Positions 2,367 to 26,375 of a stretch of 64,000 nt of DNA are shown in pieces. The position numbers were made by a program, and so were the translations under genes. The notes below the pieces were generated by a model that was not told the DNA's origin, did not search any database, and was given only the letters and a program-made list of their open reading frames with translations. The stretch's first letter is position 1. Each line of letters starts with the position of its first letter. This DNA is from Saprospiraceae bacterium (lineage in GTDB: Bacteria; Bacteroidota; Bacteroidia; Chitinophagales; Saprospiraceae): contig JAXLUT010000007.1 of NCBI GenBank assembly GCA_046329385.1, forward strand, positions 20,640 to 84,639. The letters run 5' to 3'.

Positions 2367-2594
2367 ATTTATGAAATTAAATTAATTTTAATGTATAAAT
2401 ATAACAAATACACTAAAATATGTTAATTATGTGTCAATTTTATAAAATTTCTATTTTGTAATTTATTGCATTAAAATTTAAAAGTAAATCAAGAACAAAT
2501 TTTGAAAATAGTATCGACTATCATTCCAACATGGCAGACAATTTGTAATGGACAAAGATGGATCAAGTTGCCCTTAATTATTATCAGAATGCTA

Positions 2595-3554: not shown

Positions 3555-3792
3555 ATTGGTGCTATATATTTATGTGTGATGTTTTAAGAAAATATTTTAT
3601 TTTTTTCATTTACTATCATAAACCCAATCTAACAACGATATTATTAAAATGTTTTGATGGATAATAGAGAATGCAAATGTAGCTTAATTGGTACTTGTTA
3701 TTATGTTTTTTGGATAAGTGCTTGGTTATTTTCGCTCAATTCTACACAAATTCATTCAAAGTTCATCGTTCAAAACTTGTCAGGCTCTGCGT

Positions 3793-3947
3793 GATCGTTC
3801 AAATCATTCGTCGTTCTTATCGTTCGATTCATTCGGTTGTTCAAATCATTCGGTTGCTCGATTCACTCGGTTGTTCAAATCATTCGGTTGTTCGGATCGT
3901 TCGGATCGTTCAAATCATTCGGTTGTTCGGATCGTTCAAATCATTTA
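3793..3947. repeat. degenerate 8-9-nt tandem array (about 18 units ending in TTC; higher-order unit aaatcattcggttgttcggatcgttc)
   Basis: Read directly: gatcgttc/aaatcattc/ggttgttc/ggatcgttc units in series, ending 7 nt before a TAnnTTTG box. Confidence 0.85.
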
Positions 3948-3953
3948 TTTTCA

Positions 3954-3961
3954 TATATTTG
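3954..3961 (+). promoter_or_regulatory. Bacteroidota-type -7 box TATATTTG
   Basis: Matches TAnnTTTG, 30 nt upstream of the ATG at 3991. Confidence 0.35.
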
Positions 3962-3990
3962 CATTAATTTTAATTATCACACTATTTATT

Positions 3991-4452
3991 ATGGCATTAC
4001 CCAATATTTTTACAAAAGAAGAAGCAGATAAGCTCATCAATAGAGTCAACTCTTTGACAAAAGATACTCAACCTTTATGGGGCAAGATGAATGTAGCACA
4101 AATGTTAGCGCATAGCAATGTGACTTTTCGCTATGTTTATGAACCAGAGGCCTTCAAAAAGCCAAAATTTCCAATGACATGGGTACTTAAGGCCTTTGTC
4201 AAACCACAAGTCATCAACGAAAAGCCATACCCTAAAAATGGCCCAACAGGACCAGATTTTTTAATCAAAGGCGAACGAGATTTTGAAGCTGAAAAAGAAA
4301 AAATGGTAGGATTTATTAAGCGTATCCAAGCTGAAGGTGCCTCTGGTTTTGATCAGAGAGAGTCCTTCTCATTTGGCAAACTATCATCTGAAGAGTGGAA
4401 CAATATGTTTTACAAGCATTTGGATCATCATTTACGGCAGTTTGGTGTCTAA
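3991..4452 (+). CDS. DinB-superfamily protein (DUF1569-like)
   Basis: Internal ATG (MALPNIFTKEEADKL...) of track ORF 3718..4452. The upstream 91 codons are translation of the tandem array. C-terminal FYKHLDHHLRQFG is typical of DUF1569. Confidence 0.7.
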   Translation: MALPNIFTKEEADKLINRVNSLTKDTQPLWGKMNVAQMLAHSNVTFRYVYEPEAFKKPKFPMTWVLKAFVKPQVINEKPYPKNGPTGPDFLIKGERDFEAEKEKMVGFIKRIQAEGASGFDQRESFSFGKLSSEEWNNMFYKHLDHHLRQFGV

Positions 4453-4511
4453 GTTTTGTTAAATAACATAAAAATTTGGCGAATAATATACTGATTTATA
4501 GGCTTTTATCG

Positions 4512-4856
4512 TCAAATTTTTACTTTGCTACCCTGTTTATTGTAAGCTGCTTTCAATTGCCACAATTTTGATATTTCGTAAATATCATGCGGAGCATTTT
4601 CTTCTGTATCCAGAAATGTTAATGAATATTGTACCTTGCTTGGAGACTCTATTGTTTGGATATTTTTCCATTGGAAAATACCAATCACACCGAGTACGGC
4701 AAGAAAAATTGCTGCAATAGCTATAGATTTGTAAAAGTTTACTTCACCTCTATTTTTAGATGAAGACAAACGATTTTCTAAGACAAGCCAAGCACGATCA
4801 CTTGGAGCTACTTTATGTGCTTCTGATGCATGTCTCAATTTTGATATGTTTTTCAT
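4512..4856 (-). CDS. putative anti-sigma factor, single-pass membrane protein
   Basis: Directly downstream of the ECF sigma gene. One TM helix (IAIAAIFLAVLGVIGIF). ATG at 4856. Confidence 0.45.
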   Translation of the reverse strand: MKNISKLRHASEAHKVAPSDRAWLVLENRLSSSKNRGEVNFYKSIAIAAIFLAVLGVIGIFQWKNIQTIESPSKVQYSLTFLDTEENAPHDIYEISKLWQLKAAYNKQGSKVKI

Positions 4857-4901
4857 TGACAATGATTTATACAAATAAAATGGTTTTTGATTAGATATGC
4901 T

Positions 4902-5465
4902 TTAAATCTTTTTATTGGAAAAAATGGAAGATACATTATCTTTTTTTTTAAGCGCTTCCACTATTTTTTTCTTGGCCATGATCAACTGAGATTTGGATGT
5001 ATTGATGCTGATACTCAACATCTCTGCTATCTCTCTATGCTTATATCCTTCAAAGACATACAAATTGAAAACAGTCCGATATCCAGTTGGTAATTCGTCC
5101 AAAATGCGCATTATTTGGTCAAAATCGAAATCAGTTTCATCATCCATGACTTCATCAGCAATGTCTTGGTCAGGAATAGCTACCGTCATGTGAAGGTTGG
5201 TCTGCCTCCTTATGTACATGAGGCATTCATTGACCATGATGCGTCTCATCCAGCCTTCAAAACTGCCTTCACCTTTGTACATGTCTATCTTGGTCAATAT
5301 TTTATAAAAACCTTCGATAAATACATCTTCGGCTTCGGCATTTGATTTAACATACCTAATACAAATGGCATAAAGATTATCTTTATACATCTCATACAAC
5401 TTTTTTTGAGCTTCAGGCTCTTGCTGTTTGCAATGTTGGATGATATGTTCAAGATTTAAAGACAC
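4902..5465 (-). CDS. ECF-type RNA polymerase sigma-70 factor
   Basis: 187 aa with region 2 (EDVFIEGFYKIL) and region 4 (FEGYKHREIAEMLSISINTSKSQL). Apparent GTG start. Confidence 0.85.
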   Translation of the reverse strand: MSLNLEHIIQHCKQQEPEAQKKLYEMYKDNLYAICIRYVKSNAEAEDVFIEGFYKILTKIDMYKGEGSFEGWMRRIMVNECLMYIRRQTNLHMTVAIPDQDIADEVMDDETDFDFDQIMRILDELPTGYRTVFNLYVFEGYKHREIAEMLSISINTSKSQLIMAKKKIVEALKKKDNVSSIFSNKKI

Positions 5466-5527
5466 TCTTACTACTTTCTGCTAAGATGCAATGGCGTTTT
5501 ATTTTGGTGTATAAAGTGCCGAAAATC

Positions 5528-5965
5528 CTATCGCAATCTATCCATTGATCGGACTGTATTTTCATCTTTGGAGATATACCTTGTGGCTAAGATTGAAAAT
5601 ATCAAGCTTAAAATGGGAAAATAAATGCCGAAACTATCATGTATTTCATTGGCTTTTTCTGTAGCAGTGCCTTCATTGTAAACCAACAAAATAGCTACCA
5701 AAGGTAATAGAATTGAAATGACCGTGGTGAGGTAAGACATCTTGATCTGTAGAGGTCTGTTATTATATAAAAAGATAGCTCCAATGCTGATTAATCCACC
5801 TAATATACACAATACCAGTAAGATAGGACTGTCTTGGATGTTATAAACTCTGTCATCAAATAGGTGTGGAATAGCTACTGTACTATCGGCAAATGGCACT
5901 GCAAAAAGGCTGAAAAATGAAGTGCCACTCAATAATAAGAAGATGCTTTGCAATCTTTGTATCAT
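5528..5965 (-). CDS. DUF4293-like membrane protein
   Basis: N-terminus MIQRLQSIFLLL and four hydrophobic helices. Confidence 0.65.
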   Translation of the reverse strand: MIQRLQSIFLLLSGTSFFSLFAVPFADSTVAIPHLFDDRVYNIQDSPILLVLCILGGLISIGAIFLYNNRPLQIKMSYLTTVISILLPLVAILLVYNEGTATEKANEIHDSFGIYFPILSLIFSILATRYISKDENTVRSMDRLR

Positions 5966-5982
5966 GATATATGATTTTATTT

Positions 5983-5990
5983 TACTTTTG
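5983..5990 (+). promoter_or_regulatory. -7 box TACTTTTG
   Basis: TAnnTTTG, 31 nt upstream of the ATG at 6021. Confidence 0.35.
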
Positions 5991-6020
5991 TAATATTATT
6001 AATTAACAGGCCGCAAGATA

Positions 6021-7148
6021 ATGAATTATAGTTTTTGGGAAAAGAATTTTATCGAATCACCTGTCGAAATTACCATCATTGGGTCAGGAATTGTAGGTTT
6101 AAGTACTGCAATTTCCATAAAAGAAAGGAATCCAAATATTTCTGTCAAAATTCTTGAAAGGTCAGCAACACCAAATGGTGCAAGTACAAAAAATGCGGGA
6201 TTTTCATGTTTTGGTTCAGTTTCAGAGTTGCTTCATGACATTGTTAATATGGGAGAAGAAGCTTGTATGCAAGTCGTCAATATGAGATGGAAAGGCCTCG
6301 AAAAATTAAAAAATAGGGTAGGTCTAAAAAATATGGAATACAAACCATTCGGTGGTATGGAATTATTTCGACCACAAGATGAAACATTAAGAGATAAGTG
6401 TTTTAGTAATATTGATTATTGTAATGAATTAATATACAATACGTTAAGTCTTGATTCTTGCTATCAAATAGTCGAAAATACACGGTTTCCTACATTCAAT
6501 AATTGGAGCATATTCAATCAGTATGAAGGTACAATCAATCCTATGTCTATGATGAATTTCCTTAGACAATTGTGTGCAGACTTGAAAATTGAGATAATTT
6601 ATGGCATTGAAGTTCAGAATATTTTATTTGACGAAAAAGTACTTTTTACTCATGGCAATCTCCATATTAAATATAATAAATTGATAATATGTACTAATGG
6701 TTTTACCAAGAGTTTATATCCTGATTTAGATGTGTTGCCAGCTAGAAATCAGGTGTTGATCACCCAACCAATACCAAATTTGAAATTTGAAGCGGGCTAT
6801 CATGTGGACGAAGGGTACATTTATTTCAGGAGTTACCAAAATAGAATACTTTTGGGCGGAGGAAGAAATTTGGACATCGAAGGTGAGACAACGATGGAAT
6901 TTGGAAACACAACAAATATCCAAACTTATCTTTTAAACTTATTGGAAACTATATACCCAGGTGCATCACATCTTGTAGAGCATTGGTGGAGCGGCATCCT
7001 TGGTATTGGCCCATCAAAATTTCCAATCATCCATTGGCATAATGATAGTGTATTGTTTGGAGTGCGCCTCGGAGGTATGGGAGTAGCTATCGGATCTTAT
7101 CTTGGCGAAACCTTGGCAAATGAAGTAATGGAAAGATTGAGCCATTAA
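6021..7148 (+). CDS. FAD-dependent oxidoreductase (DAO family)
   Basis: N-terminal Rossmann motif IIGSGIVGLSTA; 375 aa. Confidence 0.8.
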   Translation: MNYSFWEKNFIESPVEITIIGSGIVGLSTAISIKERNPNISVKILERSATPNGASTKNAGFSCFGSVSELLHDIVNMGEEACMQVVNMRWKGLEKLKNRVGLKNMEYKPFGGMELFRPQDETLRDKCFSNIDYCNELIYNTLSLDSCYQIVENTRFPTFNNWSIFNQYEGTINPMSMMNFLRQLCADLKIEIIYGIEVQNILFDEKVLFTHGNLHIKYNKLIICTNGFTKSLYPDLDVLPARNQVLITQPIPNLKFEAGYHVDEGYIYFRSYQNRILLGGGRNLDIEGETTMEFGNTTNIQTYLLNLLETIYPGASHLVEHWWSGILGIGPSKFPIIHWHNDSVLFGVRLGGMGVAIGSYLGETLANEVMERLSH

Positions 7149-7200
7149 ACCCATAAAGTTAAATTTTAGTTATTTTTCGATGTAAGGTTACTTTTTTACT

Positions 7201-7208
7201 TACTTTTG
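7201..7208 (+). promoter_or_regulatory. -7 box TACTTTTG
   Basis: TAnnTTTG, 27 nt upstream of the ATG at 7235. Confidence 0.35.
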
Positions 7209-7234
7209 CGTCTTCAAATGAAAATTTTTTATAT

Positions 7235-8278
7235 ATGAACATCAGATTTTTATTTACGGCGAGCGTTGCTTTAATGTATATGTCCGCTATTGCACAAACC
7301 AATAAATCAATTAGTAAAATGGACCAACAGTTTTTAAGTACCCAGCCAGACGGATTGTATGCCAAGTTTGAAACCAATAAAGGCGACATTTTTCTTGTTT
7401 TAGAGCAAAAGAAGACGCCTATGACAGTGGCAAATTTTGTAGGGCTTGCAGAGGGAAATATCAGCAATAAGGCGAAGGCTGCTGGTGTACCATATTATGA
7501 TGGCCTTAAGTTTCATAGAGTTATTCCCAATTTTATGATTCAAGGTGGCTGCCCATTGGGTACTGGTACAGGCGACCCAGGGTATAAGTTTGCAGACGAG
7601 ATTGACGAAAGTCTCAAACATACCGGTCCAGGTATCCTCAGTATGGCCAATGCTGGTCCGGGTACCAATGGATCTCAGTTTTTTATTACACACGTAGCTA
7701 CTCCATGGTTGGATGGTAAGCATACTGTATTTGGACATGTTGTAAAAGGTCAAGATGTAGTCGATGCTATCAAGCAGAATGACACCATTGTGAGCTTAAA
7801 AATATTGAGAAAAGGTTCAGAAGCAGAGGCATTTGATGCAGCCAAAACTTTTGAATCAGCTAAACAAAATGCTGCTAAAATGGAGGCAGAAAAGGCAGCA
7901 AAGATGGCTGCTGCAGCTGAAGAATTGAAAAAGCAATTTACCAATGTGACACCAAGTGGATTGAGATATATGGTCATACAAGAAGGAACAGGTAAGCAAC
8001 CTGCTTCTGCGACCAGTAAGGTAAACGTGCATTATACTGGTTCATTTTTGGATGGAAAAGTATTTGACAGCTCCGTGCAAAGAGGCCAACCTATCGAATT
8101 TGGTCTGAATCAAGTCATCAAAGGATGGACTGAAGGTGTCCAATTAATGAAAGAAGGAGCAAAATATAAGTTTTATATCCCTTACACTCTGGCTTACGGC
8201 GAGCAAGGATATCCAGGAGCCATTCCACCAAAGAGTGATTTGATCTTTGAAGTAGAGTTGCTGAAAGTGACAGATTAA
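7235..8278 (+). CDS. dual-family peptidyl-prolyl isomerase (N-terminal cyclophilin + C-terminal FKBP), secreted
   Basis: Signal peptide. Cyclophilin motifs ([30 protein letters not shown]). Ala/Lys linker. FKBP motifs ([39 protein letters not shown]). Confidence 0.85.
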
Positions 8279-8301
8279 ACCAAAAGTATCACGATATCGA
8301 A

Positions 8302-8337
8302 AAGCCTTGTTCTGTGTTGGGACAAGGCTTTTTCTTT
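8302..8337. terminator. hairpin terminator between convergent genes
   Basis: aagccttgt(N11)acaaggctt followed by a T-run. The reverse strand also has a short T-run, so it may end the cytochrome operon too. Confidence 0.6.
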
Positions 8338-8357
8338 GATATGAAGATGATAACTAA

Positions 8358-9143
8358 CTACAATGATGTGGCCTCTTCCATGATGATATCGTATCTATAC
8401 CCGGCACCAAAATCTTTATTGAGTGCAATTTTACCTCTGAGCACTACTTTACTACCGATAGGTATGTTTTGATTGGTCGTAACTGTGAGGTCGATAGCCT
8501 TACCGTTTGATTGGCTACCATCATGAATGTGTACCCAATTGCGCCCCATGATGCCATTGTTGACTTTGACGCATTCTCCAGCAATAGTGATGATTTGGCC
8601 GTCGTATTTTGATTTTTTAGCCATCAGATCAGATAGTTTTACGGCATCTTTTACTTGTATAGGTGCAGACGAAACAGGCTTTTCTTGTGTAACTTCTGAT
8701 GGCATACTACCGCTAATATTTCCACCAGGATGCGCAGATGCGTCAATGATATTGCTGACAAGATAAATAGTATCAAATGTCCTTTTGAATTCAATACTCT
8801 CAAAATTTGTTTTCATCAGGCCACCTCTATAGAGATAAGTTTGACCTTTGACAGCATCTGTTTTTGAGGTAGCAATCCAGAATTTTTTGCCTGCTTCAGT
8901 TACGTTCAGATAGGTGTATCTGTCTGTTTGCAGGATTTCATTAGCTGTTACTTGGTGTACATCTGCTGCTCCAGCCATGCCACCTGGCTTATTTCCCATT
9001 GGGTTGGTACTATTTGGTGCTGTAACAGGTATAGCAGAGTTGTTAGTGGGTGATTCGTCAGCTACTATCACTTTTGGTTTTGATTCGCAACCAAATAAAA
9101 TATGTAAAGCAATGATGCTGAAAAGTACATTTTTTATAAACAT
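8358..9143 (-). CDS. lipoprotein of unknown function, last gene of the cytochrome operon
   Basis: Signal plus lipobox (ALHILFGC). 7-nt gap from the upstream barrel gene. No CxxCH. Confidence 0.6.
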   Translation of the reverse strand: MFIKNVLFSIIALHILFGCESKPKVIVADESPTNNSAIPVTAPNSTNPMGNKPGGMAGAADVHQVTANEILQTDRYTYLNVTEAGKKFWIATSKTDAVKGQTYLYRGGLMKTNFESIEFKRTFDTIYLVSNIIDASAHPGGNISGSMPSEVTQEKPVSSAPIQVKDAVKLSDLMAKKSKYDGQIITIAGECVKVNNGIMGRNWVHIHDGSQSNGKAIDLTVTTNQNIPIGSKVVLRGKIALNKDFGAGYRYDIIMEEATSL

Positions 9144-9150
9144 GTCAAAC

Positions 9151-10767
9151 TTAATTTTTAATTCTTTGTGTAACGGTTACAAAGTAACGATGCCAAGCTT
9201 TAGTTGGTTCAAATGTGCCTTCATAACTGCACATCAATGTCGTTTTTTTCAATACATTGATGGTGAAGTTGATGCCAGCTATTTTCTGTTTTAAAGCTGA
9301 TTCACTATTGAAGAAGTTATAGTTAATTTGTCGATAATTGATTTCGGTGCTCAATTTGCCCTTAAAAAATGAATCGTTGATTCTCCCACCTATAATATTT
9401 CCCGTAAAAGTATATGACTCCAACTGGTTGTAATTCAATGACAAATTGGTTGATTTCCTTGCTATGCTCGAAATACTTAAATTGACTATATGGTTTTTTG
9501 TTGGTTTTGGTATGCTGCCTTGGTATCGGTAGAACGATGATACATTTATATTGATCCGCCTGAATGGGCTATAATTGGCCTGTAATCTGAAACCTTGTCT
9601 TGTTTCTTGGGCCAATAATTGCTCGATAAATGTTTGGTAAGATTCGTAATAAATAATATTGCGCCTATTATCATAAGAGCCAGATACTGAGAGATTGCGC
9701 CTTAGTCTATATCTGAGCGATGCATAGACGCTTGTCAATCTTGGCTTATTGTCTGTTTCGCCATTTACTTTTTTGAAGAGATCAAACTCAGTAGAAAAGA
9801 AAATATTTAGATTTTTTACTATTGAATTATTATGCTGAAAATACAGAAACCGTCTATCTGTTTTGAAGTCATTTTGCTGCTCAACGATTGCCAAAGATGT
9901 TTGAGCTAATCCTTTGGTTGTTTTATCAGATCTTACCAAATACAATCCTACTTGAGGTAGCCCTGCATTGAATGTGAAATTGGTAAAATCTGGCCTTGTT
10001 CCTAAAATGCCACCAATGGTATATTTACCAATAATGTACTCACCTTGTAGTCCATCTATGGCGCCAATATTAGCAATGTTTTGGTTCATACGTCTTCCTA
10101 ATGAAATATTGAGTCTGTCAGATGGCGAATATGTCATAGCCAACGATAGCACCTTAAAATCATTATAGAAATTGTAATTCGTCTGATCAATACCATACCG
10201 GCGGCGATAGGTCAAATAAGTTTGAATTGAAAATGCTGATTCGTTGATGTTTTGTACATTTAGACTCACAGCAGCCCTAATTCTTTGAAAATTGTTTTGC
10301 TGGTCAGGATTGATACTGGCATTGGTTGATAAAGTGAGTCTTCCAGTTGTGATAGACTTTCTGGATTTTGTTATTGGGATGGAATCTTTGCCGAGGGTAT
10401 CCAATGTCACATTTGTTTTAATTTCTTCGATGGGAAGGGAGATAACTGGCTCCAGAGTCTTTAGAACTTTTTTTGTTACAATTTTTTTAACAGCTTGCCC
10501 AAGATTGATCGTAGTACTTGAGATATTTTGTGTCACACATGAAGTAGTGGATTTCTGTATGACTACCAATGCAGGTACCCAGTTGCTTTGTTCCAAGATA
10601 AGTAAGGTGTCGGTGACATAAATATCACTTGTATTTTCAAATCTGACATAGACATTGGTGCTACTTTTAAAGCTTACATTGCCAAGTATTTCACCTCGTT
10701 CTTGACCAAACAAAAAGCTCGGTGTCAAAATAAAAATTGCCCAAAATATCCTTAATAAATAATTCAT
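9151..10767 (-). CDS. predicted outer-membrane beta-barrel protein (candidate porin partner of the cytochromes)
   Basis: Signal peptide. Long run of alternating-polarity strands rich in Y/R/N/S after a ~110-aa N-terminal domain. 3-nt gap to the cytochrome gene. Confidence 0.6.
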   Translation of the reverse strand: MNYLLRIFWAIFILTPSFLFGQERGEILGNVSFKSSTNVYVRFENTSDIYVTDTLLILEQSNWVPALVVIQKSTTSCVTQNISSTTINLGQAVKKIVTKKVLKTLEPVISLPIEEIKTNVTLDTLGKDSIPITKSRKSITTGRLTLSTNASINPDQQNNFQRIRAAVSLNVQNINESAFSIQTYLTYRRRYGIDQTNYNFYNDFKVLSLAMTYSPSDRLNISLGRRMNQNIANIGAIDGLQGEYIIGKYTIGGILGTRPDFTNFTFNAGLPQVGLYLVRSDKTTKGLAQTSLAIVEQQNDFKTDRRFLYFQHNNSIVKNLNIFFSTEFDLFKKVNGETDNKPRLTSVYASLRYRLRRNLSVSGSYDNRRNIIYYESYQTFIEQLLAQETRQGFRLQANYSPFRRININVSSFYRYQGSIPKPTKNHIVNLSISSIARKSTNLSLNYNQLESYTFTGNIIGGRINDSFFKGKLSTEINYRQINYNFFNSESALKQKIAGINFTINVLKKTTLMCSYEGTFEPTKAWHRYFVTVTQRIKN

Positions 10768-10770
10768 AAA

Positions 10771-13700
10771 TCAATCTTCACCATCTGGATGACAAGCATA
10801 ACAAGCATTGCTATTGTATTGATATCCACCTACACCGTCATGTTTGTCAGCCATGTCAGCAGGATCGTCATGTTCGTGGCAATTTATACAACTAAATAGA
10901 TTGTAATTGCTTGCATTGAAGTGGCAGTCAGCACAAGTATTCCATTCTCCTTGGTGTTTTCCACTATATATTGGGAAATACATGCCATCATGGTTAAAAG
11001 TAGCTGGATTCCAAGCATTTTGAGAGTGACAAGAAGCACAGTCTGTCGGGAATTGTGCAGCTGTATGGTTGGGATTGGTAGTACCATTATAATCGCTTTG
11101 GTGACAACCTACACAAGTATTTGGAGTATTATTGTAATTGCCATTGTGACAAGTCACACATTCTAATGATGTATGGGCACCAACTATTGGATATATACTA
11201 TTGTGGTCTGGGAACAAAGCAGGACTCCATCCAGGTGCTGTAGTATGACAACTCACACAATCGGTAGATATACCTAGTGTGCTGTGATTTGGATTGGTTG
11301 CTCCGTTATAATCTGGTGTATGACAGCCAGCACAAGTGTTGGGTGTATTGGTATAATTGCCCATGTGACATTGGTTACAATCTGCTGCAATGCTACTATG
11401 CGCACCAGTTAATTGATAAAAATTGTTATGATTGAATGACGATGGTGTCCAACTGTTCTGACTATGACAACTTTCGCAATTGGTAGGGAATTGGTTGCTA
11501 CTGTGATTTGGATTAGTAGAGCTATTATAGTCACTCGTATGACATCCGAAGCAAGTGTTTGGAGTATTGTTGTAGTCTCCATTGTGACAAACTACACAAT
11601 TATTGGCAACACTGATATGCGCACCAGCTATCACATAAAAATCATTATGGTTTGGCATCGTAGCTGGTTGCCATCCAGGAGCAGTAGTATGGCAGCTCAT
11701 ACAGTCTGTGGATAGTCCTAAGGCTCCGTGATTCGGATTTTGGGCATTATTGTAGTGCGTCTGATGACAAGAAACACAAGTGGTAGATGTATTGGTATAG
11801 TTGCCGTTGATGTGGCAAAGTGTACAATTATTGGCTATTGCTTGATGTCCACCTGTCAATGGCCAAATAGTATTATGATCAAATGAAGATGGTGTCCAAG
11901 CGTCTTGACTATGACATGTAGTGCAGTTGGTTGGGAATTGATTGACCTCATGGTCTGGGTCATTGGTTGCGTTAAAATCTGATTGATGACAACCAATACA
12001 TGTATTTGGAGTCGTTGAGTAATTGCCATTAATGTGACATTCTGTACAGTTATTGGCGATAGCGGCATGAGCTCCAACCAAAGGATAAACAGTACTGTGG
12101 TCAAATGTTGATGGCGTCCAAGCATCTTGACTATGGCATGTAGCGCATTGATTAGGAAACTGTTGAGTAGTATGATTAGGATTGGTAGTGGCATTGTAGT
12201 CAGACTGGTGGCATCCTACACAAGTGTTGGGCGTATTGTTATAATCACCATTGTGACAAGCTGCACAATCACCAGCTATAGCAATATGTGCGCCGGCAAT
12301 GACATAAAAATCATTGTGATTGGCCATCGTGGCAGGAGACCAACCTGGATTGGTGGTGTGACAAGTGGCACAAGCTGTACTCAGCCCCAAAGTAGTGTGA
12401 TTAGGGTTGATACTTTGATTGTAATCTGTCTGGTGGCAACTGACACATTCTGATGAGGTATTATTGTAATTTCCATTATGACAAACCACACAATTGGTGG
12501 ATATAGCAGAGTGCGCGCCTGTCAAAGGCCAAAAAATACTATGATCAAAATTAGCTGGTGTCCAAGTGTTTTGATTATGGCACGTGGTACAATCAGTAGG
12601 AAACATACCTGCTTCGTGATCTGGATTGGATGTATTATTGAAATCCGATTGATGACAACCGACACATGTGTTTGGAGTATTGGTATAGTTGCATTATGAC
12701 AAGCTGCGCAATCTCCTGCTATGGCAGTGTGTGCGCCAGCTATGACATAGTAATCATTGTGATTGGGCATCATGGCTGGTGCCCATCCAGGTGTGGTAGT
12801 GTGGCATTGTACACAATTATTGGATATACCCAAGGCTATGTGATTTGGATTGACAGCTTGATTGAAGTCAACAGTATGACAATCTACACAGTTAGTAGAT
12901 GTGCCTTGATAACCATTGGCATGACATGATGTACAATCTGCACTGGTGTGTGCGCCCGTCAATGGGAAATTGGTGGTATTGTGATCAAAGATAAAATCTG
13001 CATCGCCTGTAGGATGACATGCCAAACAAGCAGGGCTATTGTAAACATAGCCGCCTACACCGTTATGTTCATTGTCAGTTTGTGGATTGGTATGACAAGT
13101 GATACAAGTAAATTGGCTGTAGTCGGCTGGATTGTTATGGCAATCTTGACATTGTGTCCATTCTCCTTGGTGCTCGCCAGAGTATATAGGGAAATATTGA
13201 TTATCATGGTTGAAAGTGGACGGTTGCCATGCATTTTCGCTATGACAAGAAGCACAGTCGGTTGGAAATTGTAAGGCTATGTGATTCGGGTCAGTGGTGG
13301 CAGTATAATCGCTATTGTGGCAACCTACGCATGTATTTGGCGTATTGTTGTAGTTACCATTATGACAGGCGGCACAATCATTTGCTATGGATGCGTGTGC
13401 GCCATTTAAGGTATAAAATTGATTGTGAATGGTGAATGAAGCTGGTGCCCAACCTGGATTGGTAGTGTGACAAGATGCACAATCCGTAGTCAAATTTAGT
13501 CCAACGTGATTGGGATTGCTTGCTTGATTAAAATCAGTGGTATGGCAACTTACGCAAGCTGAATTGGTATTGGCAAATCCATTGGAATGGCACTGCATAC
13601 AATCTACACCTTGGTGTGCTCCAGTCAATGCAAATCCTGTGGTATTATGGTCGAACACTAAATCGGCATCTCCTGTAGGATGGCAAGCCAAACATGCAGG

Positions 13701-16007
13701 GCTGAAATATGAATAACCACCTACACCATTATGTTGATCATTAGTTTCTGGGTTTTGATGACAAGTAATGCATGTAAACGCGGCCCAATTGCCTGGCGTA
13801 GAGTGGCATTCATTACAATCATTCCAAGTACCTTGATGCTTTCCGCTATATATTGGGAAATATTGCCCATCATGGTTGAATGTGGATGGCGTCCAAGCAT
13901 TTTCAGAGTGACATTGTGCACATTCTTGAGGGAATAGTAATTGTGCATGGTTAGGATTGGTAGTGGCATTATAATCATCGTTGTGGCAACCATTACAAGT
14001 ATTAGGCGTGACATTGTAATTGCCATTATGACAACTGGCACAATCATTGGCAATACTGGCGTGTGCACCATTTAGCGCATAATATGTATTATGATCCGCA
14101 AAGGTGGCAGGACTCCAGCCTGGATCAGTAGTATGACATGATTTACAATCGGTATTGATACCTAATGAAATGTGATTTGGATTGGCTGCACCATTAAATT
14201 CAGTCAAATGACAGCTGGCACAATTGGTAGAAGTACCAGCAAATCCTGTAGCATGGCAACTAATACAATCTGTAGCATTGTGGGCACCAGTCAGTGGAAA
14301 AGCAGTAGTGTTGTGATCAAAAACCACTAATGCATCACCAGTAGGATGGCAAGCCAAGCACGCATTATCTTGATAAATATAGCCGTTTACATCATCGTGT
14401 TCTTCAGAAGTCTCTGGGTCTTTGTGACACGATACACATGTAAACTTAGTAAAATCACCCGCAACTTTGTGACAATCTATACACTGGTCCCATTCGCCTC
14501 TGTGTTTACCGCTATATATTGGGAAATATTGCCCATCGTGGTTAAATGTTGATGGTTGCCAAGCATTTTCGGTATGGCAAGTGGTACAATCATGCGAAAA
14601 CTGATTTTGGACGTGATTTGGGTCATTCGCTGCATTGTAGTCGCTATTATGACATCCAATACAAGTATTGGGTGTATTGTTGTAGTCACCGTTATGACAA
14701 GCTACACAGTTATTGGCAATACTCGCATGAGCGCCATTGAGCATATAATAATCGTTGTGAACAGCAAAAGTTGCAGGACTCCAACCTGGAGCTGTAGTAT
14801 GACAAGATTTGCAATCGTTTGACAGATTAAGTTTTGTATGATTTGGATTTTGTGATCCAGCAAAATCTGATTGATGACAATCCACACAAGCTGTCGATGT
14901 ACCTTGAAAACCATTGGCATGACAAGATACACACTCTACTGTGGTGTGTGCCCCTGTCAATGGAAATTGTGTAGTATTATGGTCAAATGCCATATCTCCA
15001 TCACCTGAAGGGTGGCAAGCCAAACAAGCATTGTCATCATAATGGTAGCCGCTGACGCCATTATGTTCGTCATCTGTTTCCATTTTTTTATGACAAGCTA
15101 TACATGAAAATGTTTTGAAATCTCCTGGATTGGTATGGCATTCCACACAATCTGACCATACACCTTTGTGTTTGCCGCTGTATATTGGGAAATGTTTTGC
15201 ATCATGTTCTTGAAAAGTCACTGGTCTCCATCCTGGAGCCAAAGTATGGCATTGGGCACATTCTGTTGTAAATCCAGCAGCAGCGTGATTTGGTGAGGAT
15301 GTATTGTTGAAATGTGTTTGATGACAACTGATACATTCAGCAGAGATGATAGAAAAATCATCTGATAAATGACAAGCCTTACAATCATCTATCTTATGGC
15401 CTTGCTCCAAAGGGAAGAAGCTATGGTCGATGATTTCAGTATTCCATCCGGACCCATTCAATCCATGGCAAGCAGAACAGTCATTGCTAAAGTTGTTTTT
15501 GACGTGATCTGGTTTTTTGGTGCTGATATAGTCATTTCTATGGCAATCAATACAGTTGACGCCTGTAGGAGAAAATCTTACATTGCTTTCGCTTATATGG
15601 CAATCATTGCAATTGATATTGGCATGTACACCCATCAATGGGAATGAAACCTGCTCATGCAATAGGGTGATATTCTCAACTATCCATGATTGTGGTGTAT
15701 GACACCTTGCGCAGTCTTGCCCTACTGTGAGCTGGTGTACATCTTGATGGCAACCGACGCAAGTAGTGGAGACTTGTTTAAACTCCAATGTCTGATGACA
15801 TGATCTACAATCTAGATCTTTGTGCAGACCAACCAATGGAAAAGATGTACTGTCGTGACTGAAGTTAGATTTTTTTTGTTGGTAAGTCCAATTTTCGGGA
15901 TGATGACATTGTGCACAGTCTATGGCAAAGGATGCTCCATGGGGAGACTGAGACAAAACCCTTCCCCAAAGACATACAAAGAACATCAAACCAATATATT
16001 TGAGCAT
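10771..16007 (-). CDS. giant multiheme c-type cytochrome-like protein, ~1745 aa, ~70 CxxCH motifs, interrupted by a 1-nt frameshift near 12692
   Basis: Track ORFs 12522..16007 (44 CxxCH before the frame is lost) and 10771..12606. Adding one G at 12691/12692 restores ...CAACHNGNYTNTPNTCVGCHQSDFNNTSNPDHEAGMFPTDCTTCHNQN..., giving 26 CxxCH downstream of the break. Sec signal MLKYIGLMFFVCLWGRVLSQ. Confidence 0.8.
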
Positions 16008-16195
16008 ATTTTACAAAAATATGACGCAAGTTATAATAAAAAATTTAAATAGCGTAATTTAATGCTAATTTTTTTAACTTATAATTTAATTTTGAATTAT
16101 GGCGTATTGATGAAATTATATTTTGTAAAATTTGGAATTATTTGTTTTGATTTTCATGGTTTTCCATGAGTATAAGAAGAAAAATATCGATTTGC

Positions 16196-18040
16196 TCACT
16201 GATGACAATCTTTGCAGTCCAATTTTTCATTTCTATATAGGATGGTAGATTTGCCATCTTTGACCTCAGATTGGTGGCACTGGTTGCAGTTGACTTTTTG
16301 GTGCGCTCCTTCGAGTTTGAAGCGCGTGTTGTCATGATTAAAATTGCTCCGATCCCACTTTTCAAAACCGTGACATCTAGCACAATCGGTCTGGCCATCT
16401 TGTTCAAATTGATTGCCATGTATGTTGTCGTGGCAGCTTTGACATTTTTGGTCCAATTGGATAAATTTTTGTGTTTTTGGCGTTGTGGTTTCGTCAAAAT
16501 GGCATGACCTGCAAGATATTGTCTCGTGTTTTCCCTTGAGTGAAAATGCGGTTTGGTTATGGTCAAAAGCTACATGAGTCCATGCATCATTGTTGTGACA
16601 AGCAGCGCAATCTTGGTTAGGTATAAATTTGGTTGAAATAAAACCATCATGTATATTATCATGACAATCAATACATAAAGATCCAATATTTCTAAAATTC
16701 CATTTATTATTATCAGGTTTATGGCAAGCAAAACAAGGTGTAGCAATATGAGCACCTTTGAGCGGAAAATTGGATTTTTCGTGTCGGTTGAAATCAAAAC
16801 TACTTTCCAAAAAACTAGTTTCGTCATGACAAGATTTACAATCATTTTCTACCAATTTTTCAAATTGCCCATCATGATAATCTTTATGGCATGATTTACA
16901 TTGGTCATGAGCCAAAGGAGCCGTCATATAGGTCGAAGTATGGCATTTGCGGCAATCGACTGATTGGTGCTTACCATACAATGTATAACCCGTCAAAGTA
17001 TGATCAAAATCTGATTTGATATTTTTAATGCCAAATGATTGCTGGTTATGACAAGATTTACAATCTTGGCCTAATTTTTTTTCATGGGCATCCTCATGAC
17101 AAGTAAGACAAGTTACATTTTGGGTGTTTTCAAATTCCTTGTATGTATCTTTTGTCCCAGATCTATTATCATGACATTTTTTACAATCAATAGTTTTGTG
17201 TTTGCCTTCCAACTCAAAACCTGTCAAACTATGGTTGAAGGCAGATGTGGACTTCATTTTTGAAAATGACTCGGTACTATGACAAGATTTGCAATCTGTA
17301 CCGAACTCACCATGATGAGGATCTTTGTGGCAAGAGCTGCAATTTTTATGAGGCACATTCGCAAAGTTTTGAAATTCTTTTCCATTTTTAATCTCTGTTT
17401 TATGGCATTGGATACACTGCACATTGGCGTGTGCCCCTGTCAATGGAAATTGGGTTTGGCTATGCTGAAATCCTGTAGCTGGTTTGAACTTGTCAAAATT
17501 ATGACACTTTGCACAATCATTGTCCAAGGTTTTTTGGTGATAGTCATCATGGCATGTGATACAAGTAGGAGATAAGCCAAGATAAGTACCTTTATTTTGT
17601 CTTATTTTTGGATCTGTAATATTATCGGCTGTATGGCACTTAGTACAATCATTGATCTTGTGGCTGCCTTTCAGATCATAACCTGTCAATGAGTGGTTGA
17701 AAGTCTTCTTGTCAAAGCGGATCATTTCAAAATTGACGCCATGGTGCTCGCTATGGCAAGTAATGCAGGCCTTGCCTTTGATCTCTCTGGATGAATGGTA
17801 ACCTTTGTTTTGACTTATTTTTTGTTTGAGTGGCTTGTGGCAATCCAAGCATTTTTGCTCTGATATCTTAGAGCCTAGATCATGACATGCCGTACAATTG
17901 CTGATACCTTCGAGTTGGGTATGCGCCTTGGTCAATTTGCCCGGTGACAATTGACTGAAGCCAACACAAATACATAGCGACCAGCATGTAATGATGGAGA
18001 CCAATTGCTTAATGGATAAACTATGTATAAATGATGCCAA
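16196..18040 (-). CDS. multiheme c-type cytochrome-like protein, 23 CxxCH motifs
   Basis: 614 aa with an N-terminal hydrophobic signal. 23 CxxCH by manual count, about one per 27 aa. Confidence 0.85.
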   Translation of the reverse strand: MASFIHSLSIKQLVSIITCWSLCICVGFSQLSPGKLTKAHTQLEGISNCTACHDLGSKISEQKCLDCHKPLKQKISQNKGYHSSREIKGKACITCHSEHHGVNFEMIRFDKKTFNHSLTGYDLKGSHKINDCTKCHTADNITDPKIRQNKGTYLGLSPTCITCHDDYHQKTLDNDCAKCHNFDKFKPATGFQHSQTQFPLTGAHANVQCIQCHKTEIKNGKEFQNFANVPHKNCSSCHKDPHHGEFGTDCKSCHSTESFSKMKSTSAFNHSLTGFELEGKHKTIDCKKCHDNRSGTKDTYKEFENTQNVTCLTCHEDAHEKKLGQDCKSCHNQQSFGIKNIKSDFDHTLTGYTLYGKHQSVDCRKCHTSTYMTAPLAHDQCKSCHKDYHDGQFEKLVENDCKSCHDETSFLESSFDFNRHEKSNFPLKGAHIATPCFACHKPDNNKWNFRNIGSLCIDCHDNIHDGFISTKFIPNQDCAACHNNDAWTHVAFDHNQTAFSLKGKHETISCRSCHFDETTTPKTQKFIQLDQKCQSCHDNIHGNQFEQDGQTDCARCHGFEKWDRSNFNHDNTRFKLEGAHQKVNCNQCHQSEVKDGKSTILYRNEKLDCKDCHQ

Positions 18041-18045
18041 ATTTC

Positions 18046-19368
18046 TTACTTTTTATGAGATAACATGGTGTAATTGAATCGTTTAGATATTTCAATGCCA
18101 GCTTTTTGTAGAAATTGTGTTGGTAACTCTCCACCAGCAAAAATAAAGACCAAATCATTTTTAAGATGCATCTCAGTGCCATCTTTCAATGCAATAGTGA
18201 CATCATCTTGATTGATCTCTTTGACATTGGATTCAAAAAGCATATTAATTTTATTTTCATTAATGGCTTTTTCTATATTTTGAGCATTAAGCGGTTTTAA
18301 CCTATTGAATGCTTCGCTGCGATATGATAGTGCTACTTTGTTGTCTTTGGCCAATAGCAATGCACTTTCGATGGCTGAATCTCCGCCACCTACCACAAGG
18401 ACATTTTGACCAATAATATGTTCTGGCTCCATGAGTTTGTAAGCTACTTTTTCCAAATGCTCGCCTTTTACATCCAGTTTTCTTGGTGTGCCTCTGCGAC
18501 CTATTGCCAAAAGTACTTTTTCGCCTTGGTAGCTTTCACCTTTTTGTGTAGTCACCACGAATTGACCATCTTGCTTGCTGATAAGTTCTACTTTTGAGTT
18601 TTCGACAATATTGATTTTATTCTTATCTAATACTTCGTGCCAAAGGTCGAGCAATTCGGTTTTACTGGTTTGATATAGCTTCACTTTGCCATGTCCAGGC
18701 AGGTCCATAGGCGATGTCATGACGATCTTGGCTCTAGGAAAATTATATACAGTACCTCCAAGAGTATCTTGCTCCAATGTCAATGTTTTGATGCCCATGT
18801 TTTTGGCTTGGAGAGATGCTGCAATACCAGCAGGACCAGCACCGATGATGATGAGATCATAAGTGGCTTTATGATTTTTGTCCAAAGACTGTGAGATATA
18901 TTGGACTGCTTGTTTGCCTTGTTCTACACTATTTTTAATGAGGCCCATTCCACCCAATTCGCCAGCTATAAAAATGCCTTTGACATTGGTCTCAAAATTT
19001 TGGTTGACATGAGGCAGATCGACGCCACGTTTTTCAGTACCAATCTTTAGAGAAATTGCTTCTACTGGGCAAGCGTGAAAACAAGCACCATGACCTACAC
19101 ATCGGGATGCATTGATGAGCGTGGCTCTTCCATTTCTGATACCTATGATTTCTTTTTCTGGACAAGCTATGACGCATGCTCCACTTTTGATGCAATTATC
19201 TTCGTCAATGTATGGATACAAAGATACGGGTTCGAAGGCTCCAACTTCTTTGGCTACTTGGATTTTTTCGTCCACATCTTTGGATTCTTTTTTGAGTTTA
19301 CGCACATAGATCCACACGATAATGAGACAAATCAAGCTGACAACGCTATATATAATGAGCTCTTCCAT
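18046..19368 (-). CDS. membrane-anchored FeS (2 ferredoxin-like motifs) + FAD/NAD(P)-binding oxidoreductase (thioredoxin-reductase-like fold)
   Basis: N-terminal TM helix followed by RKLKKESK. Motifs CIKSGACVIACP and CVGHGACFHACP. Dinucleotide motifs IIGAGPAG and VVGGGDSA. Confidence 0.85.
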   Translation of the reverse strand: MEELIIYSVVSLICLIIVWIYVRKLKKESKDVDEKIQVAKEVGAFEPVSLYPYIDEDNCIKSGACVIACPEKEIIGIRNGRATLINASRCVGHGACFHACPVEAISLKIGTEKRGVDLPHVNQNFETNVKGIFIAGELGGMGLIKNSVEQGKQAVQYISQSLDKNHKATYDLIIIGAGPAGIAASLQAKNMGIKTLTLEQDTLGGTVYNFPRAKIVMTSPMDLPGHGKVKLYQTSKTELLDLWHEVLDKNKINIVENSKVELISKQDGQFVVTTQKGESYQGEKVLLAIGRRGTPRKLDVKGEHLEKVAYKLMEPEHIIGQNVLVVGGGDSAIESALLLAKDNKVALSYRSEAFNRLKPLNAQNIEKAINENKINMLFESNVKEINQDDVTIALKDGTEMHLKNDLVFIFAGGELPTQFLQKAGIEISKRFNYTMLSHKK

Positions 19369-19374
19369 CAGTGC

Positions 19375-20229
19375 TTAAAATATCCAAGTATAACCAAAAG
19401 TCAATGTCACTGCTACGTGAATGATCATGATGATGAGCATGATCAGAGCAAAAGGCAAGTGAGCAATGTGCCAATACCTAAATAATTTTTGCATAGTGAG
19501 CAGTCTTTGTATTTTCCGATTGAGATTCAGCTCATTGGAGATATTGAGCATGATAGATTTCATCTCTGATGATGGAATATTTTGTGTATTCAATCTACTT
19601 CGAATGATTCGCAATTGTTTCTTTTCATCAAGATATTGTGAAATGTATCCACTAAAACCCTTATAGTCTTGAGTGGATTTTGTAGATTCGATCAATCCAT
19701 GTATATCCACATTGGAGTATTGTTGTTGATCGACACTTGCATCTTTTGCTGACATTGCTTGCAATTCAACTAAGCTGAGTTCTCGGCCTTGGATGGTGCG
19801 TGGTATTTGAAGATAAATGAATCGACCTATCACGCCACTCGCCACTACTGCGACCATACTCCAAAAACTGATGGAAACGATGCCACCGAATTTGAAAGCT
19901 GTATGAAATAAGATCATGATGGGGCCCAAAGTACACAGAAAAATGTGAAATTCGAGCCAGTATTTCAACACACCAATCCTACTAAGCGAACGGAATCTTT
20001 TTCTTGCCATATAACCAAACACGCCTATCAAGATAAGCAAAGTGCCGATGATGCCTAATCCATGGCCATACATACCACTAGGTTTTAGGTTTTGATGGTC
20101 TTGATGATAAAAACGCTCCTCAAGTGAAGTAACATAATAATCTGAACCATGTAGTGCTAAATAAATAGTAACACCAACTACTATGGAAGCCAAGGTGGCA
20201 AGATAGATCTTATGGCCTGTCTCGGTCAT
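19375..20229 (-). CDS. polytopic membrane protein with two H-x13-H pairs (candidate di-heme b transmembrane electron carrier)
   Basis: Likely start MTETGHKIY at 20229, preceded by a TAnnTTTG box. About five TM helices. EFHIFLCTLGPIMILFH and HLPFALIMLIIMIIH lie within hydrophobic segments. Confidence 0.6.
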   Translation of the reverse strand: MTETGHKIYLATLASIVVGVTIYLALHGSDYYVTSLEERFYHQDHQNLKPSGMYGHGLGIIGTLLILIGVFGYMARKRFRSLSRIGVLKYWLEFHIFLCTLGPIMILFHTAFKFGGIVSISFWSMVAVVASGVIGRFIYLQIPRTIQGRELSLVELQAMSAKDASVDQQQYSNVDIHGLIESTKSTQDYKGFSGYISQYLDEKKQLRIIRSRLNTQNIPSSEMKSIMLNISNELNLNRKIQRLLTMQKLFRYWHIAHLPFALIMLIIMIIHVAVTLTFGYTWIF

Positions 20230-20251
20230 GGATGATGAGGTTATTCTTTTG

Positions 20252-20259
20252 CAAAGGTA
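20252..20259 (-). promoter_or_regulatory. -7 box TACCTTTG for the cytochrome operon
   Basis: TAnnTTTG on the minus strand, 22 nt upstream of the ATG at 20229. Confidence 0.3.
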
Positions 20260-20854
20260 TGAAAATTTGAATGTCTTTTTGAAATATTTTTTATTTAGAT
20301 GTGGTGCTTTACCAAACAATTTACAAATATTGTAGTAAATTTTGTATGCGTCCAAACATAAATGATTTAGCTTAATCCTGAGTTGCAAGGTAAATTGAGA
20401 TTTATTTATTGAGTATGAGTGATTTAAGGAGTGATAAATTACGAAGTACTAAATTTTTTCAATACCCAAGTTTTTAGATGTATTAAGAGCATTATTAGCT
20501 TTAGAATGGCATCACAAGTCCCAATTTGTATTATTGATATTCTTTACCTAACTTAATATAGACAGTATTCAGCATTTCGTGATTAAATTTATATGTTTTG
20601 AAGACTTAGATTTGTGGTTGAAACTATATAATGGTAAGTTTGTACGCTCAAATTTTTTTAAAAAGTCAAATTAGATCAATAAGTCAGTGGCAATATTGCG
20701 CTGACTTTTTTATATAATACAGTTTATAAATTAACTGATACGATGTTGACAGTGGATTTGATGTATTCATATTATATATTATTATATGTTAATGAAAGAT
20801 TGACCTAATTTAAAATTTTTCATATTATTTACATTATATGTTAAAAAACATCGT

Positions 20855-26323: not shown

Positions 26324-26375
26324 TGTGTGCACTGCCTCCCTATAAACTGGACTTTTTTCAAATGGCGTAAATTTG

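Follow-up and report, generated by a model that had tools for sequence, protein, structure and literature searches.

A predicted 70-haem cytochrome of a Saprospiraceae bacterium belongs to a length-variable, barrel-associated family and may form part of a trans-envelope electron conduit

A 64,000-nucleotide stretch of the genome of a Saprospiraceae bacterium (contig JAXLUT010000007.1, positions 20,640 to 84,639; this whole stretch is called the window here, and all coordinates are window positions) contains, on its minus strand between positions 16007 and 10771, a frameshifted coding region crowded with CxxCH haem-attachment motifs. The locus raises the question of whether so many haem sites belong to one real gene and, if so, what a protein of this kind would do for the cell. 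The first part can be answered plainly: the gene at minus-strand 16007..10771 is real and encodes a secreted protein, referred to below as the giant, in which 70 haem-attachment sites can be counted. For the second part we lean, with modest confidence, toward a reading in which the surrounding gene cluster encodes a porin-cytochrome-like trans-envelope conduit that would export electrons from NAD(P)H, with the giant acting as a haem wire of variable length.

The gene is presently divided between two overlapping open reading frames (ORFs), 12522..16007 (1161 amino acids, aa) and 10771..12606 (611 aa). Counted frame by frame, the first ORF holds 44 CxxCH motifs, while the second frame, followed over 10771..12693, holds 26, including a CVGCH in the bridging stretch that lies 5′ of the first ATG of that ORF; the same count found no CxxCH in the third frame of the gene and no CxxxCH or CxxxxCH variants. 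The break itself reads TGT CAT AAT GCA ACT in the DNA, at a place where the paralogous modules of the protein all read C-H-N-G-N/D-Y. Inserting one G between window bases 12692 and 12691 (AAT-G[G]C-AAC) restores AAT GGC AAC TAT and produces a single uninterrupted ORF of 1745 aa. The 5′ part of the gene (12693..16007, minus strand), recognised from the ORF listing, the motif count, the module dissection and the Pfam c7/c3 matches, thus encodes residues 1-1105 and haem sites 1-44. The single-base deletion at 12691..12692, where one G of a GG is absent, falls in codon 1106 (GGC, Gly) and splits the gene into its two ORFs, and the 3′ part (10771..12690) encodes residues 1107-1745, the stop codon and haem sites 45-70, ending in a type-c module with the sequence ...ACYACHPDGED.

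The repaired protein carries exactly 70 CxxCH motifs (44 + 26), one per 24.9 residues. A sequence-only reading of this DNA had arrived by manual count at the same figures (44 motifs in the N-terminal ORF and 26 in the remainder, one of them in the bridging segment, in about 1745 aa, or about one motif per 25 residues), and the automated count reproduces them. All but one of the 141 Cys residues (140) lie inside motifs, and 77 of the 147 His residues lie outside them, in keeping with the abundant extra His described in that reading. Of the 16 Met residues, 15 are non-initiator. Chance does not produce such a protein, as 2000 shuffles of its own composition gave a mean of 0.94 CxxCH motifs and a maximum of 6. 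A window-wide motif count found no ORF with more than one CxxCH apart from the giant and an adjacent 23-motif cytochrome. The proposed Sec signal peptide is also present, at residues 1-19 (MLKYIGLMFFVCLWGRVLS, followed by QSPHG). The Q that marks the predicted cleavage site is conserved, and substrates of signal peptidase I in Bacteroidota usually have Gln at +1.

Is the frameshift a property of the organism or of the assembly? The closest database protein (P0002) is intact, has 1745 aa, differs from the window protein by 20 substitutions, and its residue at the repaired codon is Gly. Its gene was recovered from three independent samples and different sequencing runs, on contigs (L001-L003) which in pairwise alignment over the giant gene share 98.2% nucleotide identity with the window and differ from it by exactly one indel, AATGGCAAC versus AATGCAAC; one of these sister-strain contigs, L001, is colinear with window positions 2337..20265 at 98.3%. 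Elsewhere in the window, the essential gene alaS (34158-36775, plus strand) is frameshifted near a T5 run at about 36125-36140 and has a conserved continuation in another frame, which indicates that the assembly contains indel errors. Because the sister-strain gene is intact in three samples and alaS is broken in the same window, the frameshift of the giant gene is, on these sequence comparisons, most likely an assembly error. The alternative is that the one-base deletion is real and the gene is a pseudogene in this strain, whose product would be a 1161-aa, 44-haem fragment with a junk tail, or nothing at all. The window allele is indeed frameshifted as it stands, and the site is merely a GG dinucleotide with no long homopolymer to invite an error. 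We nevertheless consider a pseudogene quite improbable in view of the intact sister-strain contigs and of the codon differences from that strain, which still look selected downstream of the shift (25 synonymous to 8 non-synonymous, versus 46 to 12 upstream). A second gene in the window besides alaS, an ATPase_2/AAA-family gene (1049-2253, minus strand), is likewise split over two frames (ORFs of 165 and 216 aa), and homologues of the giant gene in Nanopore-derived metagenome-assembled genomes (MAGs) are often fragmented in the same manner (L008, L016, L018, L030, L054), all of which points to assembly indels. Taken by itself, the split ATPase gene could be either a further assembly indel or a true pseudogene. 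Programmed frameshifting was considered separately and rejected: the shift is not conserved, and in the sister strain, as in every full-length homologue, the frame continues without a break.

The anatomy of the protein is regular. The signal peptide is followed by one lone haem site and then by a series of 23 modules, which measure 66-78 aa and contain three CxxCH motifs apiece. Residues 1-336 make up a 13-haem core, behind which stand three nine-haem super-modules of 222 aa with an a-b-c arrangement (residues 337-1002) and then further modules. The three super-modules share 65-69% of their residues and about 68% of their nucleotides with one another, exact DNA repeats all stay below 30 nt, and Tandem Repeats Finder detected no DNA-level tandem repeat in the gene. 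A motif count inflated or reduced by collapse or expansion of repeats during assembly was rejected on these grounds, since such diverged super-modules without an exact repeat of 30 nt or more are old repeats. An alignment of 18 modules, which fall into two related types, shows invariant H7 and H18 along with the three CxxCH motifs and a near-invariant H54, and the five type-c modules (FNHDGQYFPIYSGKH...EH..V.GY.Y...ACLACHP.GD) likewise carry three extra His residues. Conserved non-motif His residues therefore number about one per haem site, and the module alignment contains no conserved Met; because of this pattern, all sites are predicted to be bis-His, low-spin haems for electron transfer, not catalysis. 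The composition of the protein is extreme (K+R 1.9%, D+E 8.5%, N 11.5%, T 10.3%), giving it a very acidic, polar surface.

Profile searches place the giant among known cytochrome families. PF14522 (199 bits, cutoff 24.8), PF14537 (153 bits, cutoff 25) and PF02085 (136 bits, cutoff 22.9) all score above the Pfam gathering threshold, with E-values of 6e-60 for Cytochrome_C7, 2e-45 for Cytochrom_c3_2 and 6e-40 for Cytochrom_CIII. By these matches the giant is an exported c-type multihaem cytochrome of the c3/c7 (class III) superfamily, as the sequence-only reading had supposed, with covalent haem attachment predicted. A gene for a System II (ccsBA-type) cytochrome c synthetase, moreover, lies within 10 kb of the neighbouring barrel gene in 41 of 79 related loci, although the 64-kb window contains no ccsA-like gene of its own. 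The possibility that the protein is instead a Cys/His-rich metal-binding protein, using CxxCH for metal ions in place of covalent haem, is almost certainly wrong: every Cys but one lies in a CxxCH, the spacing is c7/c3-like with matched distal His residues, the cytochrome families match at E-values of 1e-40 to 1e-60, and the linked synthetase gene is a dedicated one. More specific relationships are harder to draw. The named NCBIfam models for multihaem proteins (DmsE/MtrA decahaems, HmcA, QrcA, nanowire_3heme) all score far below their cutoffs, a phmmer search of residues 1-1105 against the PDB sequences gave no match at E <= 1e-3, and a profile of the three-haem module found HmcA as its best PDB match (E 3e-5), with all others above 0.007. 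The idea, raised from the sequence, of a long intramolecular haem wire fits the tandem c7-like modules.

How unusual is a protein with 70 haem sites? The best 120 homologues have 1424-2027 aa and 58-82 CxxCH motifs, with one motif every 24-27 aa; those with a named source belong to MAGs of Saprospiraceae, Lewinellaceae or other Chitinophagales, and they are annotated as 'hypothetical protein'. The motif number follows a 1+3n rule in 104 of these 120, the 16 exceptions being almost all N- or C-terminally truncated or frameshifted, and the giant itself conforms (70 = 1 + 3 x 23). When the three-haem module profile was searched against 1.84 billion cluster representatives, it matched 5575 clusters at E <= 1e-3, of which 1093 also passed E <= 1e-30; the largest protein among the matches listed has 2321 aa and 94 CxxCH motifs. 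Cytochromes encoded next to a homologue of the barrel have 13, 16, 22, 37, 43, 46, 49, 55, 61, 64, 67, 70, 73, 76, 88 or 94 motifs. A 13-haem orthologue aligns end to end and colinearly with residues 1-338 of the giant (46% identity), and a 22-haem orthologue aligns with residues 1-559 (51% identity). Because these short orthologues align to the N-terminal part of the giant, the family is seen, on alignment, to lengthen by insertion of three-haem modules behind a constant 13-haem core.

The giant shows each of the features by which we define this family, as it lies upstream of a barrel homologue, has a 1+3n motif number, begins with the 13-haem core and ends in a type-c module, and the partners that belong to the definition (a 20- or 23-haem cytochrome, an iron-sulfur (FeS) flavoprotein and a protein with five transmembrane (TM) helices and His pairs) are all encoded directly upstream in the window. 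By sequence, the window gene is thus one more member of the family, 99% identical to existing metagenome sequences and with a normal haem count. Its description as exceptionally haem-rich holds against MtrA and MtrC but not within its own family, where the top homologues have 58-82 motifs and orthologues reach 94; a count of 70 is high in absolute terms and ordinary for Saprospiraceae. Among other lineages, up to 75 motifs per protein are reported in Desulfuromonadia (PMC11492766), and another survey reports 112 motifs in one protein of a Paludibaculum MAG, which belongs to a different phylum (PMC11495043).

The most informative features, which the sequence-only reading does not mention, are the conserved gene cluster around the giant and the 1+3n variation in length. 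Only 4 nt downstream of its stop codon begins the gene for a 538-aa outer-membrane beta-barrel protein (9151..10767, minus strand), in which a signal peptide precedes a beta-sandwich (residues ~22-100), and a disordered linker then leads to a barrel with about 22 strands. AlphaFold2 models this protein with a predicted local distance difference test score (pLDDT) of 81, and Foldseek against the PDB retrieves FimD, PapC, Occ porins, AlgE and PfeA at E-values of 1e-10 to 1e-7. Apart from Porin_4 at E 1.7, no Pfam family matches at E <= 10, and one NCBI source labels the protein 'outer membrane beta-barrel family protein'. The cluster closes with a gene (8358..9143, minus strand) for a 261-aa lipoprotein (lipobox LFG followed by C) with a GW/SH3-like domain (Pfam GW E 1.6e-6), whose Emticicia orthologue is named 'GW dipeptide domain-containing protein' by RefSeq. 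Upstream of the giant, also on the minus strand, lie the genes for a 614-aa cytochrome with a signal peptide and 23 CxxCH motifs (16196..18040; Pfam Cytochrome_C7 E 5e-29), a 440-aa membrane-anchored FeS-flavoprotein (18046..19368; Pfam Fer4 families and Pyr_redox_3, the latter at E 2e-50) and a 284-aa integral membrane protein with five TM helices (19375..20229), a putative di-haem b cytochrome by alignment, hydropathy and charge topology. Between the GW gene and a convergent peptidyl-prolyl isomerase gene, a scan for terminator-like elements found a 16-bp GC-containing hairpin (8299..8333), a consensus match only, which is likely a bidirectional terminator at the 3′ end of the operon.

We used the barrel alignment to scan one genome per GTDB species and found homologues with confirmed loci in at least 561 species genomes. 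They occur in Chitinophagales (Saprospiraceae, Lewinellaceae, Aureispira, Haliscomenobacter), in Cytophagales (Emticicia, Lacihabitans, Flectobacillus) and in Bacteroidales (Prolixibacter denitrificans DSM 27267, Mariniphaga, Draconibacterium, Lentimicrobiaceae). Synteny was counted in those retrieved loci, 51 in all, whose sequence extends 9 kb or more upstream of the barrel. A multihaem cytochrome gene stands directly upstream of the barrel in every one (51/51), the 20- or 23-haem partner is visible in 40, and the genes for the flavoprotein, the membrane protein and the GW lipoprotein occur in 41, 38 and 40, respectively. The partner cytochrome is fixed at 23 haem sites in Chitinophagales and Cytophagales, or at 20 in Bacteroidales, while its neighbour varies from 13 to 94. 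Many Saprospiraceae loci have two more cytochrome genes (13 and 10 CxxCH) 3′ of the GW gene (for example L008 12394-14970, L013 12420-14973, L016 12479-15098 and L026 12306-14911); the window is without them. The same six genes as in the window, with haem counts of 23 and 40, are found in Emticicia oligotrophica DSM 17448 on plasmid pEMTOL02 (NC_018749.1 78197-90781), directly behind a gene for a 1028-aa ccsA-type cytochrome c synthetase. This plasmid has a size of 100 kb, and on it the cluster adjoins parA and replication genes. Since the whole cluster and the synthetase are carried on a plasmid in a cultured isolate, the gene arrangement suggests a horizontally mobile module.

Two of the cluster proteins would form an inner-membrane module. 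The 440-aa flavoprotein begins with an N-terminal TM helix (residues 4-22) followed by RKLKK, from which the bulk of the protein is predicted to be cytoplasmic. It has two iron-sulfur motifs of the form Cx5Cx3CP, together with GxGxxG and GxGxxA sites for FAD and NAD(P)H. In residues 59-100, Ser or His occupies the place of the second Cys in the classical Cx2Cx2Cx3CP motif, leaving three Cys per cluster, which suggests [3Fe-4S] clusters or clusters with a non-Cys ligand. The closest PDB relatives are YpdA/Bdr and ferredoxin-NADP reductases of the TrxR type. Beyond its FeS motifs the protein has no Cys and no redox-active CxxC disulfide, and for lack of further Cys it is not a disulfide reductase. 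The 284-aa protein has five hydrophobic helices, and the positive-inside rule would place its K/R-rich loops (76-89 and 143-248) in the cytoplasm. Four His residues are invariant, H95 and H109 in TM3 and H257 and H271 in TM5, forming pairs 14 residues apart at matching depths. His pairs of this kind are the classic signature of a two-haem transmembrane b-type cytochrome, as in cytochrome b, the NOX/ferric reductases and MsrQ. More than 7500 homologues were found, all unannotated; of 26 family members compared with Pfam, 24 show a weak similarity to DUF4405 and two to Ni_hydr_CYTB (prokaryotic cytochrome b561), all below threshold. We take the protein to be a putative di-haem b-type cytochrome.

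These parts suggest the following path for electrons. NAD(P)H would reduce the FAD and the FeS clusters of the membrane-anchored cytoplasmic flavoprotein, as its domains imply. The electrons would next cross the inner membrane through two b haems in the five-helix protein, whose His geometry is appropriate for this, and the fixed-size 23-haem cytochrome would then span the periplasm, a role proposed because an invariant size fits a fixed distance. Finally, the 70-haem protein, once loaded with haem, would carry the electrons to, and probably through, the ~22-strand barrel as a single-polypeptide haem wire, and would hand them to a physiological acceptor outside. The cytochrome and barrel genes are adjacent in all 51 of the loci counted; we infer that the protein threads the barrel and is exposed at the cell surface. 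In this scheme the length of the wire would be tuned in evolution through gain and loss of three-haem modules, as the range of 13-94 haems in orthologues suggests. That an NAD(P)H-type enzyme stands at the cytoplasmic end is the reason why we favour an outward direction. A bolder form of the proposal is an undescribed, self-contained and quinone-independent export chain, running from NAD(P)H over the FeS-flavoprotein, a NOX-like di-haem b protein and a periplasmic 23-haem bridge of fixed length to a barrel-threaded nanowire. The length of this nanowire would be genetically set in increments of three haems, between 13 and 94, which corresponds to some 10-90 nm in an extended state; we put this version forward tentatively, as possible but doubtful.

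Several observations weigh against the conduit. An AlphaFold2 model of residues 337-633 of the giant (12 haem sites, 31-sequence alignment) was poor, with a pLDDT of 56 and a predicted template-modelling score of 0.30, and Foldseek of this model against the PDB gave no match. The matches of the barrel are to outer-membrane barrels in general, ushers and TonB-dependent receptors included, at template-modelling scores of about 0.4, and with Pfam searched to E 10 no similarity of the barrel sequence to MtrB/PioB or to the Geobacter porins could be detected. For the 284-aa protein, a profile search of the PDB gave no meaningful match and nothing in Pfam or NCBIfam exceeded threshold, so that the evidence for b haems consists of His spacing and sub-threshold Pfam matches. 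In at least one genome (L004), the trio of giant, barrel and GW genes stands apart from the inner-membrane genes. The giant has an ordinary Sec signal without a lipobox, and its C-terminus is a haem module that leaves no room for a type IX secretion system (T9SS) sorting domain, so that its route to the surface is unexplained. Furthermore, many hosts (Saprospiraceae, Emticicia, Flectobacillus) are aerobic heterotrophs in which, to our knowledge, no extracellular respiration has been described.

Some of these same features would suit a periplasmic electron store, or capacitor, in which the 70-haem and 23-haem pair would buffer up to about 93 electrons and the barrel would be a mere docking or assembly partner; such storage would help a cell through oxic/anoxic swings like those of activated sludge. 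The plain Sec signal, with neither lipobox nor surface-sorting domain, agrees with a periplasmic location, storage capacity would tolerate the free variation of haem number over taxa, and the survey that first drew attention to haem-rich Saprospiraceae proteins suggests 'capacitor-like' functions for them (PMC11495043). Against storage stands the invariant adjacency of the barrel, for which a periplasmic store has no obvious need, along with the fact that the partner of fixed size, not the variable giant, is the one that looks constrained by the periplasm. The dimensions bear on this as well. In GSU1996 and MtrCAB, each haem takes up about 1 nm of length. By analogy, 70 haems could extend over 60-70 nm if stretched out, well beyond the width of the periplasm and probably several times longer than it. 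Because this extended length exceeds the periplasm and varies freely among orthologues, an outward wire is preferred, and we judge a capacitor unlikely.

The conduit could also run in the opposite direction, bringing in electrons from extracellular donors such as Fe(II), Fe(0), cathodes or partner cells. Prolixibacter denitrificans DSM 27267 has a homologous cluster (20 + 16 haems and a barrel; L058), the genus Prolixibacter includes iron-corroding nitrate reducers, and the porin-cytochrome systems MtoAB and PioAB work inward. The inner-membrane end argues otherwise, being an NAD(P)H-type flavoprotein fused to FeS clusters: reduction of NAD(P)+ from haems at typical potentials would be uphill, no coupling device is visible in the cluster, and the cluster encodes no link to a quinol pool or a terminal oxidase. 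Inward flow therefore has, in our estimate, a slim chance, and the outward conduit remains our preferred reading.

The remainder of the window supplies context for the cluster. Synteny with the sister strain (L001 1-4210) stops just upstream of the cluster, and the window flank at 20265-27449 differs, with a LytTR response regulator (21152-21868), a PAS histidine kinase (23531-26332) and an insertion-sequence integrase (26376-27449); in the sister strain, this flank is occupied by a type I restriction-modification system. A YhgA-like transposase is encoded at 30937-31872. Two SdrD_B-domain proteins (37479-39296, minus strand, and 44633-46255, plus strand) match the type IX secretion C-terminal sorting domain, and by these matches the host is confirmed as a member of Bacteroidota with a T9SS. 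In the second of these proteins the match is internal (residues 181-206), which may be a further frame problem.

What does the locus mean beyond this contig? By itself, the window yields a real gene, a frameshift that is probably an artefact and a haem count typical of its family. If the conduit reading is true, a very common group of bacteria in wastewater, freshwater and sediment carries an unrecognised electron-export machine, and its parts share no sequence relationship with the field-defining systems of Shewanella and Geobacter. If the quinone-independent version is true, hundreds of Bacteroidota species thought to be ordinary aerobic or fermentative heterotrophs, the abundant Saprospiraceae of activated sludge among them, would possess an inbuilt pathway for extracellular electron transfer. 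The family also offers a natural length series, in which the scaffold stays constant and the haem number rises by threes from 13 to 94; it could be used to probe how far electrons travel along one protein and could show what sets the required length, whether capsule, sheath or floc matrix. The family is directly testable, since it has cultured carriers: Emticicia (in E. oligotrophica the 40-haem orthologue is plasmid-borne), Flectobacillus (49 haems), Lacihabitans (43-49) and Prolixibacter denitrificans (16).

Has the cluster been seen before? A literature search for a named or characterised version returned two passing mentions (2024 and 2026). In the first, 90% of the MAGs that encode the top 50 secreted proteins by haem content in Danish treatment plants belong to Saprospiraceae, and a role in extracellular electron transfer or as a capacitor is suggested for these proteins (PMC11495043, 2024). 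By description, these proteins resemble ours, as they come from the same family-level taxon and the nearest named homologues of the window protein are proteins of Saprospiraceae MAGs. The second describes in Lentimicrobium a 'gigantic porin-MHC cluster' (MHC, multihaem cytochrome) with 61 + 20 haem sites that is not syntenic with known porin-cytochrome conduit (PCC) modules (PMC13013709, 2026). With its two adjacent multihaem cytochromes and a porin, it matches by description the Bacteroidales form of our cluster (L075, 20 + 61 and a barrel). The family has therefore been sighted in two surveys and neither dissected nor named there: PMC13013709 and the available part of PMC11495043 count motifs, and the 1+3n rule, the barrel family, the fixed partner and the inner-membrane module are absent from them.

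Among characterised systems, the cluster is most readily compared with MtrCAB, MtoAB and PioAB, in which a multihaem cytochrome gene likewise adjoins the gene for a large outer-membrane beta-barrel; the logic proposed for our cluster, a haem chain insulated by a barrel, would be shared as well. The scale differs, with 70 haems in the giant versus 10, and so do the parts. A portion of the giant weakly resembles the MtrA/DmsE model TIGR03508 (E 3e-15) but reaches 56.5 bits against a cutoff of 192.2. The giant matches the Pfam model for domain II/IV of MtrC/MtrF, yet unlike MtrC and OmcA it has no TIGR03507 match and no lipobox, the only lipoprotein of the cluster being the haem-free GW protein. 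In contrast to MtrB and PioB, the window barrel has about 22 strands with an N-terminal beta-sandwich and no MtrB_PioB match, and MtrB is not among its top 50 Foldseek matches. Where CymA draws on quinol, the inner-membrane donor of this cluster would be an NAD(P)H-type FeS-flavoprotein with a putative di-haem b protein.

The closest architectural relatives of the giant are found elsewhere. The poly-c7 cytochromes of Geobacter (GSU1996, GSU0592 and a 27-haem relative) are also built of tandem c7-like modules of ~70-75 aa with ~25 aa per haem. They differ in having 4-9 modules versus 23 in the giant and one His-Met haem per module, where all haems of the giant are predicted to be bis-His; the giant scores 16.1 bits on TIGR04257 (cutoff 40) and is encoded with an outer-membrane barrel, and in the PDB its module profile finds PpcA and GSU1996-type chains at E > 0.1 only. 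HmcA, the 16-haem cytochrome of Desulfovibrio (PDB 1Z1N), is the best match of solved structure (E 3e-5) and also consists of concatenated c3-like units, but the NCBIfam HmcA model gives 21-36 bits against a cutoff of 400, and the Hmc operon is linked to sulfate respiration. At the inner membrane, the nearest parallel is with NOX, the ferric reductases and MsrQ, which have His pairs 13-14 residues apart on two TM helices and a cytoplasmic NAD(P)H flavoprotein. The logic of these enzymes is to move electrons from NAD(P)H over the membrane without quinones. Here the flavoprotein is separate, TM-anchored and equipped with two FeS clusters, haem b is predicted, and the five-helix protein has no significant Ferric_reduct match, DUF4405 and cytochrome b561 being found below threshold. 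Although it fails the sequence tests for MtrA, MtrB, MtrC, HmcA and poly-c7, the cluster as a whole resembles, in its predicted parts and their arrangement, a porin-cytochrome conduit of the Mtr and Pcc kind.

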